Shown here: piece after piece, positions 1 through 6,950 of the stretch
Layout of the letters: every line of letters starts with the position of its first letter
Numbering within the stretch: the stretch's first letter is position 1
NCBI GenBank assembly: GCA_965230515.1
Contig: OZ246007.1
Coordinates: forward strand, 23,196 to 87,195
Origin: Pseudomonadales bacterium
Lineage (GTDB): Bacteria; Pseudomonadota; Gammaproteobacteria; Pseudomonadales; IMCC2047
DNA length: 64,000 nt
Direction of reading: 5' to 3'
The notes under the pieces: model-generated
Told to the model about the DNA's origin: nothing
What the model saw: the letters and a program-made list of their open reading frames with translations, nothing else
Database searches by the model: none
Made by a program: the position numbers and the translations under genes

Positions 1-738
1 GGGTGCAGTTGCGACATTGTCGTAGTCCATCGGCGTCATAATGACGATCACGGATTTTGGCTCAAAAGGGAAGTCTTTGTCCCAGTACAGCTCCCGTTCA
101 TGGATGATGTCGTACATGGGGTCGTAAACAAACCGCTTGTCAAAGCGGGTGATGCCGCAGCGTACAGCGCCAAACAGTTTTGCAGCACTTCGAATCATGG
201 TGGCGGCGCGCTTGGGGGAACCGAAGTCATATTGTTCGGCCTCTACATCGGATTGGTCCCAACTATGCAGCGGAGTGTTGGGCTGGGTGAACGCCTGTGG
301 CCTTGATTTCGCGGCAATTAGCGGAAACCATGCGGCATGGCCCAAAGCACGATCCGCCTGGTCGTAGCCTTCCCGTGTATTATCCGGCGGGAGCTTGTGT
401 TCAAAAGTTTGAATGTCGTAATTGAAATTAAACGTTTTATTGTGCAAACGGGCATACTGTATATTTCTTTCCGGATAGACCTCCTGGGACAATTTGGGGC
501 TGACCGCATAGCACAGCACAACGTCGCGCTGGTCCTTTGGCTTGAAGGTTTCATCAGTTTCAATGCCCTCGGATGGCGAACCGTCCAAAGAAGCTTTGGA
601 CGCTGCCAGCGTTGCTCCGCCGGCAGCCATTACACCTGCTCCGGCCAAAGCCGCTCGTTTAAAGAAGCTTCTGCGGGAGATGTTGGGTAGATCATCCAGG
701 GGCTTAACGGGAATTTGATTGTTATCCTGGTCGCTCAT
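1..738 (-). CDS. rdhA: Reductive dehalogenase catalytic subunit (RdhA-like), Tat-exported; N-terminal 246 aa only, runs off the window
   Basis: Hand translation from ATG at 738 is open to base 1: MSDQDNNQIPVKPLDDLPNISRRSFFKRAALAGAGVMAAGG... It has a twin-arginine signal, then EGYDQADRALGHAAW, IRSAAKLFGAVRCGITRFDKRFVY and FPFEPKSVIVIMTPMDY, which resemble RdhA conserved blocks. RBS GAGAGGAAG. The Fe-S motifs would lie outside the window. Confidence 0.82.
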   Translation of the reverse strand, partial: MSDQDNNQIPVKPLDDLPNISRRSFFKRAALAGAGVMAAGGATLAASKASLDGSPSEGIETDETFKPKDQRDVVLCYAVSPKLSQEVYPERNIQYARLHNKTFNFNYDIQTFEHKLPPDNTREGYDQADRALGHAAWFPLIAAKSRPQAFTQPNTPLHSWDQSDVEAEQYDFGSPKRAATMIRSAAKLFGAVRCGITRFDKRFVYDPMYDIIHERELYWDKDFPFEPKSVIVIMTPMDYDNVATAP

Positions 739-819: not shown

Positions 820-1428
820 TTAACAGATTTCAAGTAGCTCAATTTCAAAAACCAGTGCCGCATTCCCCGGTATATTGGGCGGACGACCCAGTTCGCCATA
901 GGCTAGGTTTGCAGGTATAAAAAACCGGCATTTGGTGCCAACAGGCATCAGCTGTAGGCCCTCGGTCCAGCCTGCAATAACTGACTGTAAAGGAAACTCT
1001 ACAGGGGCACCCCGTTCTACAGAGCTGTCAAATACATCACCGTTGGTCAGCGTTCCGTGATAATGAACGAGGACACTATCCAGGGGGTGGGGTTTGGCGC
1101 CGGTTCCCTGTTCCAGAATTTCATATTGCAGACCACTGGCTGTGACATGGATATCATCTCGTTGCGCATTCTGTCTCATAAAATCAGTACTTTGGTTGGC
1201 TGCAGTTTTCGCTTCCGCCTGTCTTTTTTGTTCAAGCTTTGCGGTAATGGCCTTAAAAGCGTTTTCTGCGTCTTCATCGGAGAAGGGGCTCTGATTGCCC
1301 AGGTAACAGTCTCGAAGCCCTTCATGCACGGCCTCAAGGTTGAGACCTTCGAAATCATGGGTTAGCAGGTGGCGGCCAAATTGCCAGCCAAGGCCGTAGC
1401 TAACCGTTCGTTCATCACTATTTGTCAT
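820..1428 (-). CDS. FKBP-type peptidyl-prolyl isomerase (FklB/Mip-like, dimerisation + FKBP domains)
   Basis: SYGLG N-terminal domain, SGLQYEIL, VHYHGTL..G.VFDSS.ERG.P, VIAGWTEGLQLM, IP.NAALVFEIELL. Confidence 0.95.
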   Translation of the reverse strand: MTNSDERTVSYGLGWQFGRHLLTHDFEGLNLEAVHEGLRDCYLGNQSPFSDEDAENAFKAITAKLEQKRQAEAKTAANQSTDFMRQNAQRDDIHVTASGLQYEILEQGTGAKPHPLDSVLVHYHGTLTNGDVFDSSVERGAPVEFPLQSVIAGWTEGLQLMPVGTKCRFFIPANLAYGELGRPPNIPGNAALVFEIELLEIC

Positions 1429-1431
1429 GGG

Positions 1432-1989
1432 TCACCTCGCTACCTGATTGATCGGATGGCTGATTGGCGGAACGATAGGGCCTTTGGGTGGCAGTGGCAG
1501 CAGCAATGGCGGCTCCATATATGCCTTATGGCAGGCATTGCATGTCTTGATGACTGCGCCTATGCCATTGGTGGCACCCTTGTCGTCATGCATGCGGGAG
1601 TGTTGGGCGAGGCCCATTGCTGCCGTCTCAGTGGCCAGTGACTTGGCCTTGAAATCGTTGATGTTATCCAGAATGGAGGGCCTGGCCTTCGTACCTTCAA
1701 AGGAGCCCGGAATGATAAAAAACTCATAGGACATTTTGGCCAGATACTCGAGCGCATCGGTGCGATCATTCATGCGCAGGCCGTTCCATTTTTTTTGTCC
1801 TGAAGCAAGCCTTATGGCGTCTATCAGCTGTGCTGCCATCAGCCGATGAATGCCAATTCTGGCTTCGATGGCCGGTTTTGCTTGAGTATAGGGGTCTGGC
1901 ATTTTCTGTAGTGGATTTTCCGCTGCTGCTGCGAAACTGCATAACCCGCTCATGACCAGCGGTAGTATGAGGTGAGTAAGCCTGGACAT
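1432..1989 (-). CDS. Class II (four-helix, c'/c556-like) periplasmic cytochrome c with Pro-rich tail
   Basis: Sec-type signal peptide; single C-terminal CNACH; TKARPSI resembles the T.A.P.IW motif of cytochrome c'. Confidence 0.85.
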   Translation of the reverse strand: MSRLTHLILPLVMSGLCSFAAAAENPLQKMPDPYTQAKPAIEARIGIHRLMAAQLIDAIRLASGQKKWNGLRMNDRTDALEYLAKMSYEFFIIPGSFEGTKARPSILDNINDFKAKSLATETAAMGLAQHSRMHDDKGATNGIGAVIKTCNACHKAYMEPPLLLPLPPKGPIVPPISHPINQVAR

Positions 1990-2097
1990 ATCTATTACCC
2001 TTGAGTTCGTTGCAGGGAGGCCTTTTTCCGTATTGCGCCTTCCTGTATTTGTTATCGGTTGGCAAGCTTCTTGATCGCTTGGTTGCTTAAAAACAGG

Positions 2098-2112
2098 TCA
2101 AGTTTTATGCCA
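2098..2112 (-). promoter_or_regulatory. Sigma54 -24/-12 promoter for the cytochrome-FKBP-rdhA operon
   Basis: Minus strand TGGCAT-AAAAC-TTGA vs consensus TGGCAC-N5-TTGC; ~110 bp upstream of the cytochrome start, next to a sigma54 activator gene. Confidence 0.7.
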
Positions 2113-2141
2113 TAAAATAAGCAGGATGATGTGGAAAACGC

Positions 2142-2154
2142 TAACCGATTGAAA
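2142..2154 (-). promoter_or_regulatory. Putative IHF site between enhancer and sigma54 promoter
   Basis: TTTCAATCGGTTA, one mismatch to WATCAANNNNTTR, AT-rich flank, typical position. Confidence 0.45.
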
Positions 2155-2225
2155 ACAAATATAATTTAAGTGTATAAGGGTGGGCTGTTGAGAGTGTTTT
2201 GGATAACCAGGGTTTATCAGTAATG

Positions 2226-2258
2226 CACGAAATATAGTGATAATCCCTAAATAACGTG
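2226..2258. promoter_or_regulatory. Putative tandem upstream activator sequences for the sigma54 activator
   Basis: CACGAAATATAGTG (2226-2239) and CCCTAAATAACGTG (2245-2258): related imperfect palindromes 115-145 bp upstream of the -24 box. Confidence 0.5.
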
Positions 2259-2280
2259 AATTCCAGGGCGTGTTCTAATG

Positions 2281-3735
2281 TTAGGGATTATGGTTATGCC
2301 GAGAGATCCCCAGTTTTTTCATGCGTGATTCAAGAGTGGTGGGTTTCAATCCTAGCAATCGGGCGGCACCTTTTGGGCCGCTTACCCGCCAGGAGGTTTG
2401 TTCCAGGGCTTTCAGTATGTGCTGTGACTCTGAGTCCGCTAGCGTCAAAATACCGGAATTTCCTTCGTCTGACTGCTGTTGAATAAACCATTCCCCGAGT
2501 TCAAGTTTATCGTTACTGCTGATGATAAGCGCGCGTTCGATGATGTTTTCAAGCTCTCTGACATTACCTGGCCAGTGATAGCTAACAAGGGCGTCAAAAG
2601 ATTTTTGAGGAATGGTCGCTACCCGTTTTCCCAATCGGGCACCAAGCTTGTCGACAAAATGCTGTACAAGTAAGGGGATATCTTCGCGTCTGTCTCGCAG
2701 TGCCGGTGAATAGATAGGAAACACGTTCAGGCGGTAGTAAAGATCTTCCCGGAATTTGCCCTCTCTAATCAGCTCCTTAAGATCATGGTTGGTGGCTGCG
2801 AGTACGCGCACATTCACCTTTAAGGTTTCGGAGCTTCCCACACGTTCTAACTCTCCCTCCTGCAGTACTCGAAGTAGCTTTGCCTGGAGGTCGAGAGGCA
2901 GGTCACCTATTTCATCGAGAAACAGGGTGCCCTGGTGGGCCAGCTCAAATCGTCCGGTTTTGCGAGCCATAGCTCCAGTAAAAGCACCTTTTTCATGGCC
3001 AAACAGTTCGCTTTCGATCAAATTGGATGGAAGCGCAGCACAGTTTACTTTGACCAAAGGTTTATCCGAACGCTGACTATGGCTATGAATGGCGCGGGCA
3101 ACCAGCTCTTTTCCTGTCCCCGTTTCTCCCAGTATCAGCACTGTGGTATCGGTATTGGCGACCTGTTCGATCTGTTGCAACATATATTTGAAAGGTCGGC
3201 TGGTGCCCACCATTCCACTGTTGCCCTGTTCAACCCGGATCTCTTCCTTTAGATAATGATTTTCCTTTTCCAGTTTTTCCTTTAATTCATTAAGTTCACC
3301 CAGTGCGGTTTGCAGGGCATGCTGGGTTTCTTTAATTTCCGTAATATCCCGAGCCTCAGGAACCAGAAACTGTACTTTTTGGTTCTCGTTTAACAAGGGA
3401 TTGAGCGAAAAGTCAAAAGATCGACGCTTCCCGTGGGTATCGGTGTGCTCGGTTTCAAACCGCACAAATACGCCGGTGTTTGCTTTTTCGATCGCTTTAA
3501 TTATCTGTTCCTGAATCGTTGTAGAGTGGTTCCACCATGGTGTGTCCCAAAAGAACTTGCCTAGCACCTCTTCTTCAGAAACGCCGATCATTTCCAGTGC
3601 AGTTTCATTAACCATTAACAAACGGCCATCGGTATCCAGTAGCCCGGTAAGCTGAAAGTGGTGATTGAATATCGCATTCAGTAAATCAGGGTTATTCGGA
3701 TCGATCTGGGTAAGAGATTTATTGGTTTTGGTCAT
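2281..3735 (-). CDS. PAS-domain sigma54-dependent transcriptional activator (FhlA-like AAA+ and HTH)
   Basis: N-terminal PAS ([10 protein letters not shown]), [41 protein letters not shown]-terminal HTH. Confidence 0.95.
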
Positions 3736-3972: not shown

Positions 3973-4818
3973 TCAATTCCGTTCCCCAAAAGCCTGCGAG
4001 TGATGCGCGATATGCTCACCTATAAAGCTGGCAATAAAAAAATAACTGTGGTCATAGCCGGACTGAATTCTCAGTTCGAATGGATGATTCGCTTCGCGAC
4101 AGGCATCTGCCAGTCGTTCCGGCTTTAACTGTTCATCCAGAAACCCGTCCTGGTCGCCCTGGTCGATCAGAATAGGCAGGCGTTCTTTGGCGGATTTGAT
4201 CAGCGCGCAACTGTCGTATTGAGCCCATTGCTGCCGGTCGTTGCCAAGATAATGGCTGAGCGCTTTTTCACCCCAGGGGCAGTTCATCGGAGAGCAGATC
4301 GGCGCAAAGGCTGATACAGCTTTATAGCGTCCGGGATTTTTAAGTGCCATGGTGATGGCACCGTGGCCACCCATCGAGTGGCCCATCATCGATTGCCGGG
4401 ATGCATCCAGCGGGAGCTGCTTGAATATCAGCTCGGGAAGTTCCTCGCAGATATAGTCGTACATCTGATAGTTTTTTCGCCAGGGTTCCTGTGTCGCGTT
4501 AACATAGAATCCTGCTCCTATGCCAAAATCCCATTCATCATCGGGATCATCCGGAATGGCTTCTCCTCTGGGGCTGGTGTCTGCGGCGATCATGGCCACG
4601 CCGTGCTCACTGGCGTAGCGCTGCGCGCCCGCTTTTTGTACGAAGTTCTCGTCGGAGCAGGTCAGCCCCGAGAGCCAGAATATTGCCGGTACCGGTTTCT
4701 GCTCCGCGAGAGGTGGTAGATAAACGGAAAAATTCATCTCGCAGTTCAGACTGCCGGAGTGGTGCTGGTAGCGTTGCTGATGGCCGCCAAAGCATCGAAT
4801 GTCGCTGATCTTTTGCAT
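3973..4818 (-). CDS. fghA: S-formylglutathione hydrolase
   Basis: WLSGLTC, GHSMGGHGA, GYDHSYFFIASFI; adjacent to frmA. Confidence 0.96.
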   Translation of the reverse strand: MQKISDIRCFGGHQQRYQHHSGSLNCEMNFSVYLPPLAEQKPVPAIFWLSGLTCSDENFVQKAGAQRYASEHGVAMIAADTSPRGEAIPDDPDDEWDFGIGAGFYVNATQEPWRKNYQMYDYICEELPELIFKQLPLDASRQSMMGHSMGGHGAITMALKNPGRYKAVSAFAPICSPMNCPWGEKALSHYLGNDRQQWAQYDSCALIKSAKERLPILIDQGDQDGFLDEQLKPERLADACREANHPFELRIQSGYDHSYFFIASFIGEHIAHHSQAFGERN

Positions 4819-4830
4819 CTTTTTCGGATC

Positions 4831-5937
4831 CTAGTAAAGCACAACTGAACGAATGCTTTTGCCTGCATGCATCAGCTCGAATGCCGTATTAATCTCTTCC
4901 AGTGGCATGGTATGGGTAATCAGGTCGTCAATATTAATTTTATTATCCATATACCAGTCGACGATCTTTGGAACGTCGGTTCGGCCACGCGCACCACCAA
5001 ATGCTGTGCCGCGCCAGACTCTGCCGGTTACCAGTTGAAATGGGCGCGTGGAGATCTCCTGTCCGGCACCAGCGACGCCGATAATATAGGATTCCCCCCA
5101 GCCCTTGTGGCAGCACTCCAATGCCTGCCGCATGGTGTTGACGTTGCCGATGCATTCAAAGCTGTAATCCGCACCGCCGCCGGTCAGTTCGACGATCGAA
5201 GACACAATATCTTCCACCTCTTTAGGGTTGATGAAATCGGTCATACCAAACTGTCGAGCCAGTGGAACTTTGGATTCGTTCAGGTCAATACCCACGATTT
5301 TATTGGCGCCGGCCAGTCTTGCGCCCTGAATGACATTGAGTCCGATTCCGCCGAGACCAAAGACGACCACATTTGATCCTGGCTCTACTTTGGCATCAAA
5401 TACTACCGCACCCACTCCGGTTGTGACGCCGCAGCCAATGTAGCAGACTTTGTCGAATGGCGCGTCCTGGCGGATTTTTGCTAATGCTATCTCGGGTAAT
5501 ACGGTGTAGTTGGAAAAGGTGGAGCAACCCATGTAGTGCAAAATAGGTTTTCCATCCAACGAATATCGACTGGAGCCATCAGGCATCAGCCCGGCACCCT
5601 GAGTTTCGCGAATGGCCTGGCACAGATTGGTTTTCGGGTGAAGGCAGAAATCACACTCCCGACACTCCGGTGTATAAAGGGGAATCACGTGGTCGCCTGG
5701 CTTGAGTGAGGTCACGCCTGGGCCTACTTCCTGCACGATTCCGGCACCCTCATGGCCCAATATTGCCGGAAAGGCACCCTCCGGATCATCGCCCGAAAGG
5801 GTAAAAGCATCAGTGTGACAGACCCCTGTTGCCTTAATTTCGACCAATACTTCACCGGCTTTGGGGCCTTCGAGATCCACTTCTACAATTTCTAAAGGTT
5901 TGCCCGCCTCAAAGGCAACGGCTGCTCTTGTTTTCAT
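4831..5937 (-). CDS. frmA: S-(hydroxymethyl)glutathione dehydrogenase / class III alcohol dehydrogenase
   Basis: [49 protein letters not shown]. Confidence 0.97.
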
Positions 5938-6080
5938 GGTTATGCTCCAGTGTGTTGTTGGTTAATCGCTAGCCTATGTTTGGAAGGTGATGCCTGTTAA
6001 ATACTACATTGTTTTTTCTTGAGTTATAAACAGTATAAATGCAACATATTGTTCTTTTTGTGCAACAAAGGGTTTGGTCG

Positions 6081-6950
6081 ATGAGTAAATGGGATCAGTA
6101 TGAAGCCTTCGTTAAAGTGGTCGAACATAAGGGATTCTCTGCCGCCGCGGACAAAATGGAGGTGTCCAAGTCCTATATCAGCCGCCAGATATCAGGCCTT
6201 GAAAACCGGCTTGGCGCGCAACTGCTCAACCGCACTACACGTAAGGTAACACTGACGGAGCTTGGTGGCAGTTTTTACAGCCATTGTAAAGATCTGCTCG
6301 GAAATCTGGAATTTGCCGAACAGGCAGTGATGGACATGCAGGCACGTCCCATCGGGACGTTGCGCATCACCGCTGTTGGCGTTTTTGCGGAGGATTATGT
6401 GGTTCCGGTAGCAATCGAGTATATGAAAGCATATCCGGATATTCGAGTGGATATAGATTTTTCTGACCGGGCTATCGATCTTGTTGCCGAGGGCTTTGAT
6501 CTGGCAATCCGTTCGGGTGTGCTGCCTGATTCCAGTCTGAAAGCGCGTAAAATAGTGCCTCGAAATCTAAAAATCTGTGCCAGTCCGCATTACCTTTCCG
6601 AGCACGGTATACCCGGACGAATATCTGATCTTCATCAGCATAACTGCCTGGTGGGTTCAAATACCACCTGGCGAATAAAAGATGACGAACATCATTATGA
6701 CTTTAAGGTTGAGGGTAGCTGGCGCTCCAATAACGGAAGGGCTCTGAAACGCGCGGCATTGAGTGGATTGGGAATCGTCCAATTGCCGGAGCTTTACTTA
6801 AGAGATGATATAGAAGCAGGACGTTTACGTTCTATTTTGGATAAATATAATCCTGTAGACCCAATGTATTGGGCGGTTTACCCTTATAATCGTCACCTGG
6901 CAACCAAAGTCAGGTTGTTTATCGATCTGCTGGTGAATCGTCTGACCTAG
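6081..6950 (+). CDS. LysR-family regulator, divergent from frmA
   Basis: FSAAA..S.ISRQISGLENRLGAQLLNRTTRKV HTH; CrgA-like effector domain; start placed at ATG 6081. Confidence 0.93.
   Translation: MSKWDQYEAFVKVVEHKGFSAAADKMEVSKSYISRQISGLENRLGAQLLNRTTRKVTLTELGGSFYSHCKDLLGNLEFAEQAVMDMQARPIGTLRITAVGVFAEDYVVPVAIEYMKAYPDIRVDIDFSDRAIDLVAEGFDLAIRSGVLPDSSLKARKIVPRNLKICASPHYLSEHGIPGRISDLHQHNCLVGSNTTWRIKDDEHHYDFKVEGSWRSNNGRALKRAALSGLGIVQLPELYLRDDIEAGRLRSILDKYNPVDPMYWAVYPYNRHLATKVRLFIDLLVNRLT

Follow-up and report, generated by a model that had tools for sequence, protein, structure and literature searches.

The window, by which we mean the whole 64,000-nucleotide stretch of DNA analysed here, begins inside a reductive dehalogenase gene and carries on its minus strand a gene for a class II cytochrome c with a histidine at the distal haem-face position. 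This His-type gene (c'-alpha fold; 1432..1989, minus strand) has an ATG start, encodes 185 amino acids and comes first in a module, the rest of which was read by adding the DNA that precedes the window (L005). Only 3 nt past its stop lies the start of a gene for an FKBP-type peptidyl-prolyl isomerase with FKBP_N and FKBP_C domains (820..1428, minus strand; Pfam, 102 and 77 bits); this protein scores 186 bits against NF008602, under the cut-off of 198, and a hydrophobicity scan found neither a signal peptide nor a hydrophobic segment in it. The next gene is rdhA, whose first 246 codons lie in the window (1..738, minus strand) and whose full length of 489 amino acids is encoded by L005:9465-10934(-). 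The RdhA protein scores 187.6 bits against TIGR02486 (cut-off 160.35), carries the Tat motif RRSFFK at residue 22 and the Fe-S motif CESCQKCAEACP at residue 343, and has 8q4h (1.3e-54) and 4uqu (1.5e-39) as its best solved relatives.

Directly after rdhA, on the same strand, there follows a gene for an RdhB-like protein of 96 amino acids with three hydrophobic segments, which matches no family model, and after it a gene, also on the minus strand, for an RdhC-like protein of 462 amino acids with FMN_bind (51.2 bits) and Fer4_5 (37.8 bits) domains. The latter has six hydrophobic segments and the motifs SGAT at residue 147, CGYLCP at 275 and CRLFCP at 366. RdhC is defined in PMC5928378 by transmembrane segments, an FMN-binding motif and two CX3CP motifs, and with its SGAT sequence, two CX3CP motifs and FMN_bind and Fer4_5 domains this RdhC-like protein fits that definition. 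IS21-like open frames, recognised by eye as IstA/IstB, lie directly downstream of rdhC and just outside the window (L005:4934-7229, minus strand).

Upstream of the cytochrome gene lies a gene for an enhancer-binding protein with PAS, sigma-54-interaction and HTH_8 domains (2281..3735, minus strand; Pfam and NCBIfam), such that the order along the minus strand reads enhancer-binding protein, cytochrome, FKBP, RdhA, RdhB-like protein, RdhC-like protein and IS21-like frames. Searching the whole window for a sigma-54 pattern with up to two mismatches returned 40 matches against 41.9 expected, which is chance level, and no minus-strand match with up to two mismatches falls in the intergenic region between the cytochrome and enhancer-binding protein genes (1990..2280, minus strand). 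A TGGCAT-N5-TTGAC sequence seen by eye near 2097-2112(-) has three mismatches and we do not claim it as a promoter. One weak sigma-70-like site is located upstream of the cytochrome gene at 2260-2231. Adjoining the regulator of the rdh module is an ordinary formaldehyde-detoxification pair (3973-6950), with genes for S-formylglutathione hydrolase and a class III alcohol/S-(hydroxymethyl)glutathione dehydrogenase and, in divergent orientation, one for a LysR regulator.

The product of the first gene is an exported c-type cytochrome with the c' fold. Its signal peptide comprises residues 1-23 (MSRLTHLILPLVMSGLCSFAAAA, then ENP; 1921..1989, minus strand), the cleavage site having been placed by eye, and the sole hydrophobic 19-mer of the protein (residues 4-22) is contained within this signal sequence ending AAA/ENP. 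Residues 40-157 score 58.7 bits against PF01322 (Cytochrom_C_2), for which the cut-off is 26.5, and the match spans 119 of the 121 profile positions (2-120); none of the NCBIfam models matches. A single CxxCH haem-attachment motif near the C-terminus of helix D, CNACH at Cys150-His154 (1528..1542, minus strand), provides the proximal ligand His154 and is invariant in 31 out of 31 aligned class II sequences. Helix A reads AIEARIGIHRLMAAQ in the open reading frame 1432-1989(-), and both this helix and the His codon in it (1846-1848) are exactly as the first-pass annotation had given them; the Pro-rich C-terminal end that it described is likewise present, as a tail of residues 160-185 (1435..1512, minus strand), and the protein ends EPPLLLPLPPKGPIVPPISHPINQVAR. 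The mature cytochrome is predicted to be basic (pI 9.3) and the mature RdhA acidic (pI 5.4), an opposition that is weakly compatible with a complex between the two.

The location of the unusual histidine relative to the haem was deduced from the printed alignments of a phmmer search of the cytochrome against all solved chains. This search returned class II cytochromes only, the best matches being the Shewanella entries 4cx9, 8h28, 6a3l and 6a3k, followed by many entries of the Alcaligenes xylosoxidans protein (AXCP). Query residues 37-91 align without a gap to residues 5-59 of AXCP (2ykz), and the alignment from query residue 38 onward with residue 6 onward of the Shewanella frigidimarina protein (4cx9) is equally gapless; consequently Arg44 pairs with Arg12, and His48 (codon CAT, 1846..1848, minus strand) pairs with Leu16 of AXCP and with Phe16 of the S. 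frigidimarina protein. From query residue 98 the offset is 34, which places Cys150, Cys153 and His154 at Cys116, Cys119 and His120 of AXCP and Met158 (1516..1518, minus strand) at Arg124. Residue 16 is the occluding distal residue above the haem in cytochromes c', namely Leu16 in AXCP, Phe16 in Shewanella and Tyr16 in Hydrogenophilus, and Arg124 (Lys126 or Arg132 in other proteins) is the proximal residue that moves upon proximal NO binding and is key to it, as set out in PMC5390784 and PMC11365222.

An AlphaFold2 model of the cytochrome, haem-free and built on 15 sequences of its clade, has a mean pLDDT of 83.4 and a pTM of 0.74 and forms a four-helix bundle with helices at residues 37-63, 70-91, 110-132 and 136-157. 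In a Foldseek search the model superimposes on the AXCP and Shewanella cytochromes c' with target-normalised TM scores of 0.88-0.91, rmsd values of about 1.6-2.3 A and a probability of 1.00 (TM 0.90 and 1.6-1.7 A for AXCP alone), and cytochrome c556 (1s05) and cb562 appear among the lower-ranked matches with TM scores of 0.65-0.71. The proposal of the first-pass annotation that a histidine occupies the distal capping position is thus borne out by the alignments to PF01322 and to solved structures together with a confident, albeit haem-free, model. Strict cytochromes c', which bind gases at a five-coordinate haem with high-spin or quantum-mixed spectra, have a non-ligating hydrophobic or aromatic residue 16 and a basic proximal residue (Arg124 in AXCP, Lys126 in SFCP), and here these places are taken by His48 and Met158, respectively; the c556 type uses a Met from helix A as the sixth ligand, and that column is a His. 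The protein fits the Pfam family and the fold, and two defining residues set it apart from both the strict cytochromes c' and the c556 type.

The His-type family is rare: among 1.84 billion representative proteins there are 47 matches at E <=0.001, seven at <=1e-10 and three at <=1e-30, and the ESM Atlas contributed generic PF01322 clusters only. A word-indexed search produced nine close relatives with 60-94% identity, all of which have His48, and the residue is invariant in 15 out of 15 clade members down to an identity of 32%. A profile made from distant members retrieved 23 proteins at E <=1e-10, 20 of them scoring 174-252 bits and having the His, and three scoring <=69 bits and having Phe. 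When the clade profile was scored against every protein collected in the analysis, His was present in all 38 rows at >=172 bits and in none of the 34 rows at <=108 bits that cover the distal column, which have Phe (16), Met (13), Tyr (3) or Leu (2); ten fragments that do not extend over the distal column are outside these residue counts. The gap in score between the His clade and all others, 172 versus 108 bits, is large. The soil and alphaproteobacterial proteins with a CHxxYM motif (L007-L009, L042-L047) score <=49 bits and were rejected as members of the clade; of these only L043 extends over the distal column, where its residue is Met. G680, G920 and L054/L055, considered as intermediates, were also rejected as Phe or Met types without rdh neighbours.

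A careful IQ-TREE phylogeny of 68 rows (34 His-type and 34 others, near-duplicates and fragments having been excluded) places the His rows on one side of a branch with an ultrafast bootstrap of 100 and an SH-aLRT of 99, which is kept in 100% of 200 bootstrap trees; an earlier quick tree of the same rows had put the His group beside four Phe-type rows and one Tyr-type row. The groups in these trees are labelled by the residue under study, and the score gap and the branch support are independent of that single column. At the position of AXCP residue 124, 0.97 of the 34 clade rows have Met, while the 34 others have Arg (22), Lys (9), Gln (2) or Leu (1). In the clade, both of the residues that flank the iron in cytochrome c' change together. 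The columns that separate the two groups are Pro31 and Asp32 (within an N-terminal PDP[YF] motif), His48, Asp57, Lys66, Gly70, Phe90, position 93, Gly126 and Met158.

The first-pass annotation had suggested asking whether, across genomes, the genes with this His go together with a neighbouring rdhA, and they do. Five further clade loci were recovered: L006, a contig titled as a Candidatus Desulfatibia MAG, whose end truncates the cytochrome gene so that the His column falls outside it; the metagenome contigs L040 and L041; and L070 and L071, from genomes of another order within the same class. When the operon proteins of the window were compared by tblastn with the full set of 71 loci, the order cytochrome-FKBP-rdhA proved to be kept in six out of six independent clade loci, the L041 contig having room for the first 56 codons of rdhA only, and the gene for the RdhB-like protein comes next in all five that extend that far. 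RdhC is adjacent in four clade loci, downstream in G000 (the window's genome), L006 and L040 and upstream in L070. At the 46 places with an ordinary cytochrome c' (29 in the window's order, 16 in a second order and one in the phylum around the MAG), the same search found no FKBP or RdhA within flanks of ~1.5 kb, which sets 6/6 against 0/46 for the proximity of rdhA. The regulators differ between the loci, being a sigma-54 enhancer-binding protein in the window, a LysR protein in L041 and a divergent TetR protein in L070/L071, and this variation implies that the cytochrome belongs with the enzyme and not with a sensor.

In all four host genomes just one RdhA passes the family cut-off, namely the one encoded next to the cytochrome, and an RdhC is present as well. 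A second RdhA-like match in the window's genome (G000:C1:604320-604886(+), 154.4 bits) falls just below the TIGR02486 cut-off, and the 738-residue open frame within which it lies may encode a fused, catabolic-type reductive dehalogenase. The constant adjacency to one type of RdhA argues that the cytochrome is probably dedicated to a single reductive dehalogenase lineage, as the electron carrier of that enzyme. The window's genome also encodes, at another place, an ordinary class II cytochrome c with a distal Met (L001:1408-1884(+), on G000:C1 at about 954.8-955.9 kb), whose gene is followed by one for a 198-residue membrane protein that resembles cytochrome b561 by eye (L001:1891-2487(+)). Similarly, a genome (G920) from the phylum sampled around the Desulfatibia-titled MAG has a Met-type class II cytochrome c beside a 220-residue membrane protein that is cytochrome b561-like by eye (L051:764-1947); this pairing with cytochrome b561 is the usual neighbourhood of c' and contrasts with the rdh linkage of the His type.

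The distribution of the cytochrome was assessed in samples of 401 genomes each, which are not censuses. In the window's order, 64 of the 401 genomes have a class II cytochrome at E <=1e-10, and the best-scoring 29 places in other genomes have Phe (26), Leu (2) or Met (1) in the distal column; matches were absent from all four same-genus and all 11 same-family genomes of this sample. Only one other genome matches in the sample of the window's phylum, with a protein of the Phe type, whereas the sample of the second order includes two His-type genomes and that of the phylum around the MAG includes the MAG alone. Psychromonas, Shewanella and Photobacterium occur among the source names of clade members. 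The window's RdhA shares 88% identity with its counterpart on the Desulfatibia-titled contig and 73% with those of same-class genomes, and the cytochrome follows the same pattern with 77% versus 44%. This shared pattern indicates that the module moves horizontally as a unit, and horizontal acquisition is consistent with the IS21-like copy at the end of the module. GC values of 0.50-0.53 in the rdh stretch against 0.46-0.51 elsewhere in the window differ too little for the stretch to be regarded as a base-composition island.

The C-terminal tail is conserved in part. Its start, EPxLLLPLPP, is retained in the close clade, and a comparable (T)E(V)ILPLP is found in the branch whose source names include Psychromonas, Shewanella and Photobacterium; the far tail (GPIVPPISHPINQVAR) is confined to four sequences, all close relatives, two of which have Leu in place of His179. 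In the model of the window's cytochrome the pLDDT drops along the tail from about 77 to 44, and a second model, made for P0070, gives a pLDDT of 93 to the block that includes the first tail residues and of 67 to the last nine residues. A C-terminal His (or HK) follows a Pro/Ala-rich tail in 19 of the 38 His-type rows (P0011, P0013, P0062-P0072, P0074-P0077 and L070:9442-10002(-)) and in none of the window's own sub-clade. The terminal His could act as an extra ligand or as a metal or partner contact, and it is possible that the tail docks a partner.

A c-type haem with His/His ligation is low-spin and considerably more negative in potential than one with His/Met ligation or the five-coordinate haem of c'. 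We consider it somewhat better than an even bet that the cytochrome, with a six-coordinate His/His haem of low potential, carries electrons in the periplasm to the adjacent RdhA. According to this proposal the gene encodes a monohaem cytochrome with a four-helix-bundle fold that is exported by Sec and matured by Ccm; His48 would serve as the sixth ligand of the iron and give a low-spin His/His haem, the potential of which would lie below those of c' or c556, and the gas-binding site would be closed. RdhA would be folded in the cytoplasm, with the cytoplasmic FKBP probably acting as its chaperone, and exported via Tat, and the cytochrome would shuttle electrons to it in the periplasm, acting after RdhA export. 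The transferable module has as its fixed parts the cytochrome, the cytoplasmic FKBP, the Tat-exported RdhA and the RdhB-like membrane protein.

Two comparisons lead us to propose ligation by His48: residue 16 of the homologues lies over the iron, as described in PMC5390784, and the M7H variant of cytochrome b562 is reported to have strong double axial His ligation (PMC8082397, citing Hay and Wydrzynski 2005). A further argument for His48 as a ligand is that, with its basic proximal residue gone, the protein seems to have given up gas-binding chemistry. A low His/His potential would suit a donor to an enzyme with a cobalt couple near -360 mV, the value given in PMC7031245. RdhC is NapH/NosR-like, and its periplasmic FMN domain would be the likely donor to the cytochrome. 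Two hosts have an RdhC to which a flavodoxin domain is joined: a protein of 945 residues (L072:1619-4456(-), on G1397:C19) combines FMN_bind, Fer4_5, Flavodoxin_1, FAD_binding_1 and NAD_binding_1, and another (L006:2941-4788(+)), truncated by the contig end after its flavodoxin domain, has FMN_bind, Fer4_5 and Flavodoxin_1. The RdhC of the window's genome (462 amino acids) is unfused. Such a fusion of RdhC with a diflavin reductase suggests that NAD(P)H drives electrons through the membrane to the FMN domain in the periplasm. On a more tentative note, and with the chances rather against it, the clade may represent natural bis-His, low-potential cytochromes of the c' fold that are the missing periplasmic donor of a marine RdhA lineage and are fed via RdhC, the whole system forming a route that bypasses quinones and leads from NAD(P)H in the cytoplasm across the membrane to a corrinoid enzyme in the periplasm. 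Against the carrier reading, the respiratory RdhA/RdhB systems of Firmicutes, according to the study behind 8q4h, reportedly run without any cytochrome.

A residue capable of ligation in the distal column is in itself insufficient for ligation; 13 of the 34 ordinary relatives have Met there. One of these, P0023, has the cytochrome c' 1gqa as its closest solved structure, and Met16 of the R. molischianum protein is not known to bind the iron. This coexistence of Met with c'-like proteins lends some weight to the idea that His48 stays off the iron as a distal base of the globin or peroxidase kind, in which case a five-coordinate haem would bind or turn over a small molecule such as O2, NO or H2O2 and shield RdhA, an oxygen-sensitive corrinoid enzyme, in hosts that are facultative and marine. 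The genera among the clade's source names (Psychromonas, Shewanella and Photobacterium) are facultative and marine, and the parent family does bind gases (PMC5390784 and PMC11365222). We nevertheless deem such a gas-binding, protective haem unlikely. Residue 16 sits directly over the haem (PMC5390784), which makes an unligated imidazole sterically unlikely, and the proximal Arg or Lys of NO chemistry is lost throughout the clade; furthermore, the window's genome already has its ordinary class II cytochrome with a cytochrome b561, and the strict position ahead of FKBP-rdhA-rdhB in 6/6 loci suggests a stoichiometric partner of the enzyme.

A subtler departure from permanent His/His ligation, and to our minds quite an improbable one, is that the haem is six-coordinate in one redox state only, with His48 detaching on reduction or upon partner binding and thereby gating electron transfer or coupling it to protons. 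The ligand-switching cytochrome c'' of Methylophilus offers an analogue. The c' scaffold permits large movements of residue 16 upon ligand binding, as PMC5390784 describes, and the C-terminal His that half of the clade rows (19/38) carry on a flexible tail is a possible competing ligand; the window's own sub-clade, however, lacks this terminal His. A further view would take the substitution to be incidental, the protein to be an ordinary cytochrome c' and its adjacency to rdhA to be a coincidence; both its Pfam match and its fold are indeed those of c'. The comparative data already contradict this and we give it hardly any credence: the 38 rows, with identities as low as about 32-35%, all keep the His, the clade forms one side of the 100/99 branch, and the gene order is kept in 6/6 loci of unrelated hosts. 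We favour the dedicated His/His electron carrier of RdhA over these alternatives.

How electrons reach the periplasmic reductive dehalogenases is an open question; menaquinol at -75 mV is far too positive for a Co(II)/Co(I) couple at about -360 mV (PMC7031245). A cytochrome that is co-inherited with one RdhA lineage represents a concrete and expressible candidate for the carrier, and its hosts, by source name, include culturable marine genera. If the proposal is true, it would add a natural third type of ligation, His/His, to a fold for which only five-coordinate (c') and His/Met (c556, b562) haems are known, and the family offers a built-in comparison set of His16/Met124 versus Phe16/Arg124 proteins. 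In the open-access rdh papers and preprints searched, no cytochrome of the class II family figures as an rdh accessory, and a search of open-access papers and preprints brought up nothing on a natural bis-His class II cytochrome. By this open-access literature, the His-type cytochrome is best filed as an unreported variant of class II cytochrome c.

Among known systems the closest is cytochrome c' itself (AXCP 2ykz and 1e83; Shewanella 4cx9 and 6a3k), with which the clade protein shares the Pfam family, the four-helix bundle, the C-terminal CxxCH, the equivalent of Arg12 (Arg44) and a signal peptide. It departs from cytochrome c' in having His at residue 16 instead of Leu, Phe, Tyr or Met and Met in place of the proximal Arg124/Lys126, in its N-terminal PDP[YF] motif and Pro-rich C-terminal tail, and in being encoded with rdhA instead of cytochrome b561. 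The four-helix bundle is also shared with cytochromes c556 (1s05) and b562, as would be the sixth ligand from helix A and the electron-transfer role proposed here; in those proteins, however, the sixth ligand is Met and the potentials are high, whereas His is proposed for the clade protein, which is closer in sequence to c' than to c556. In a relative, the distal column corresponds to residue 12 of 1s05 provided that the alignment, given as a range only, starts gapless, and Met12 is presumably the ligand of that c556. The FKBP-type isomerase, which is cytoplasmic, occupies the place that the trigger-factor-like PceT (RdhT) has in Firmicutes, where PceT plays the role of a chaperone. As in other rdh clusters, by the definitions in PMC5928378, RdhB-like (three hydrophobic segments) and RdhC-like proteins are present. 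The nearest parallel to the proposed ligation is the engineered cytochrome b562 M7H, a related bundle in which a His placed at the ligand site on helix 1 is reported to give double axial His ligation (PMC8082397). That protein is man-made, holds a b-type haem and has no physiological partner, whereas the clade protein is natural, of the c-type and conserved together with its partner enzyme.
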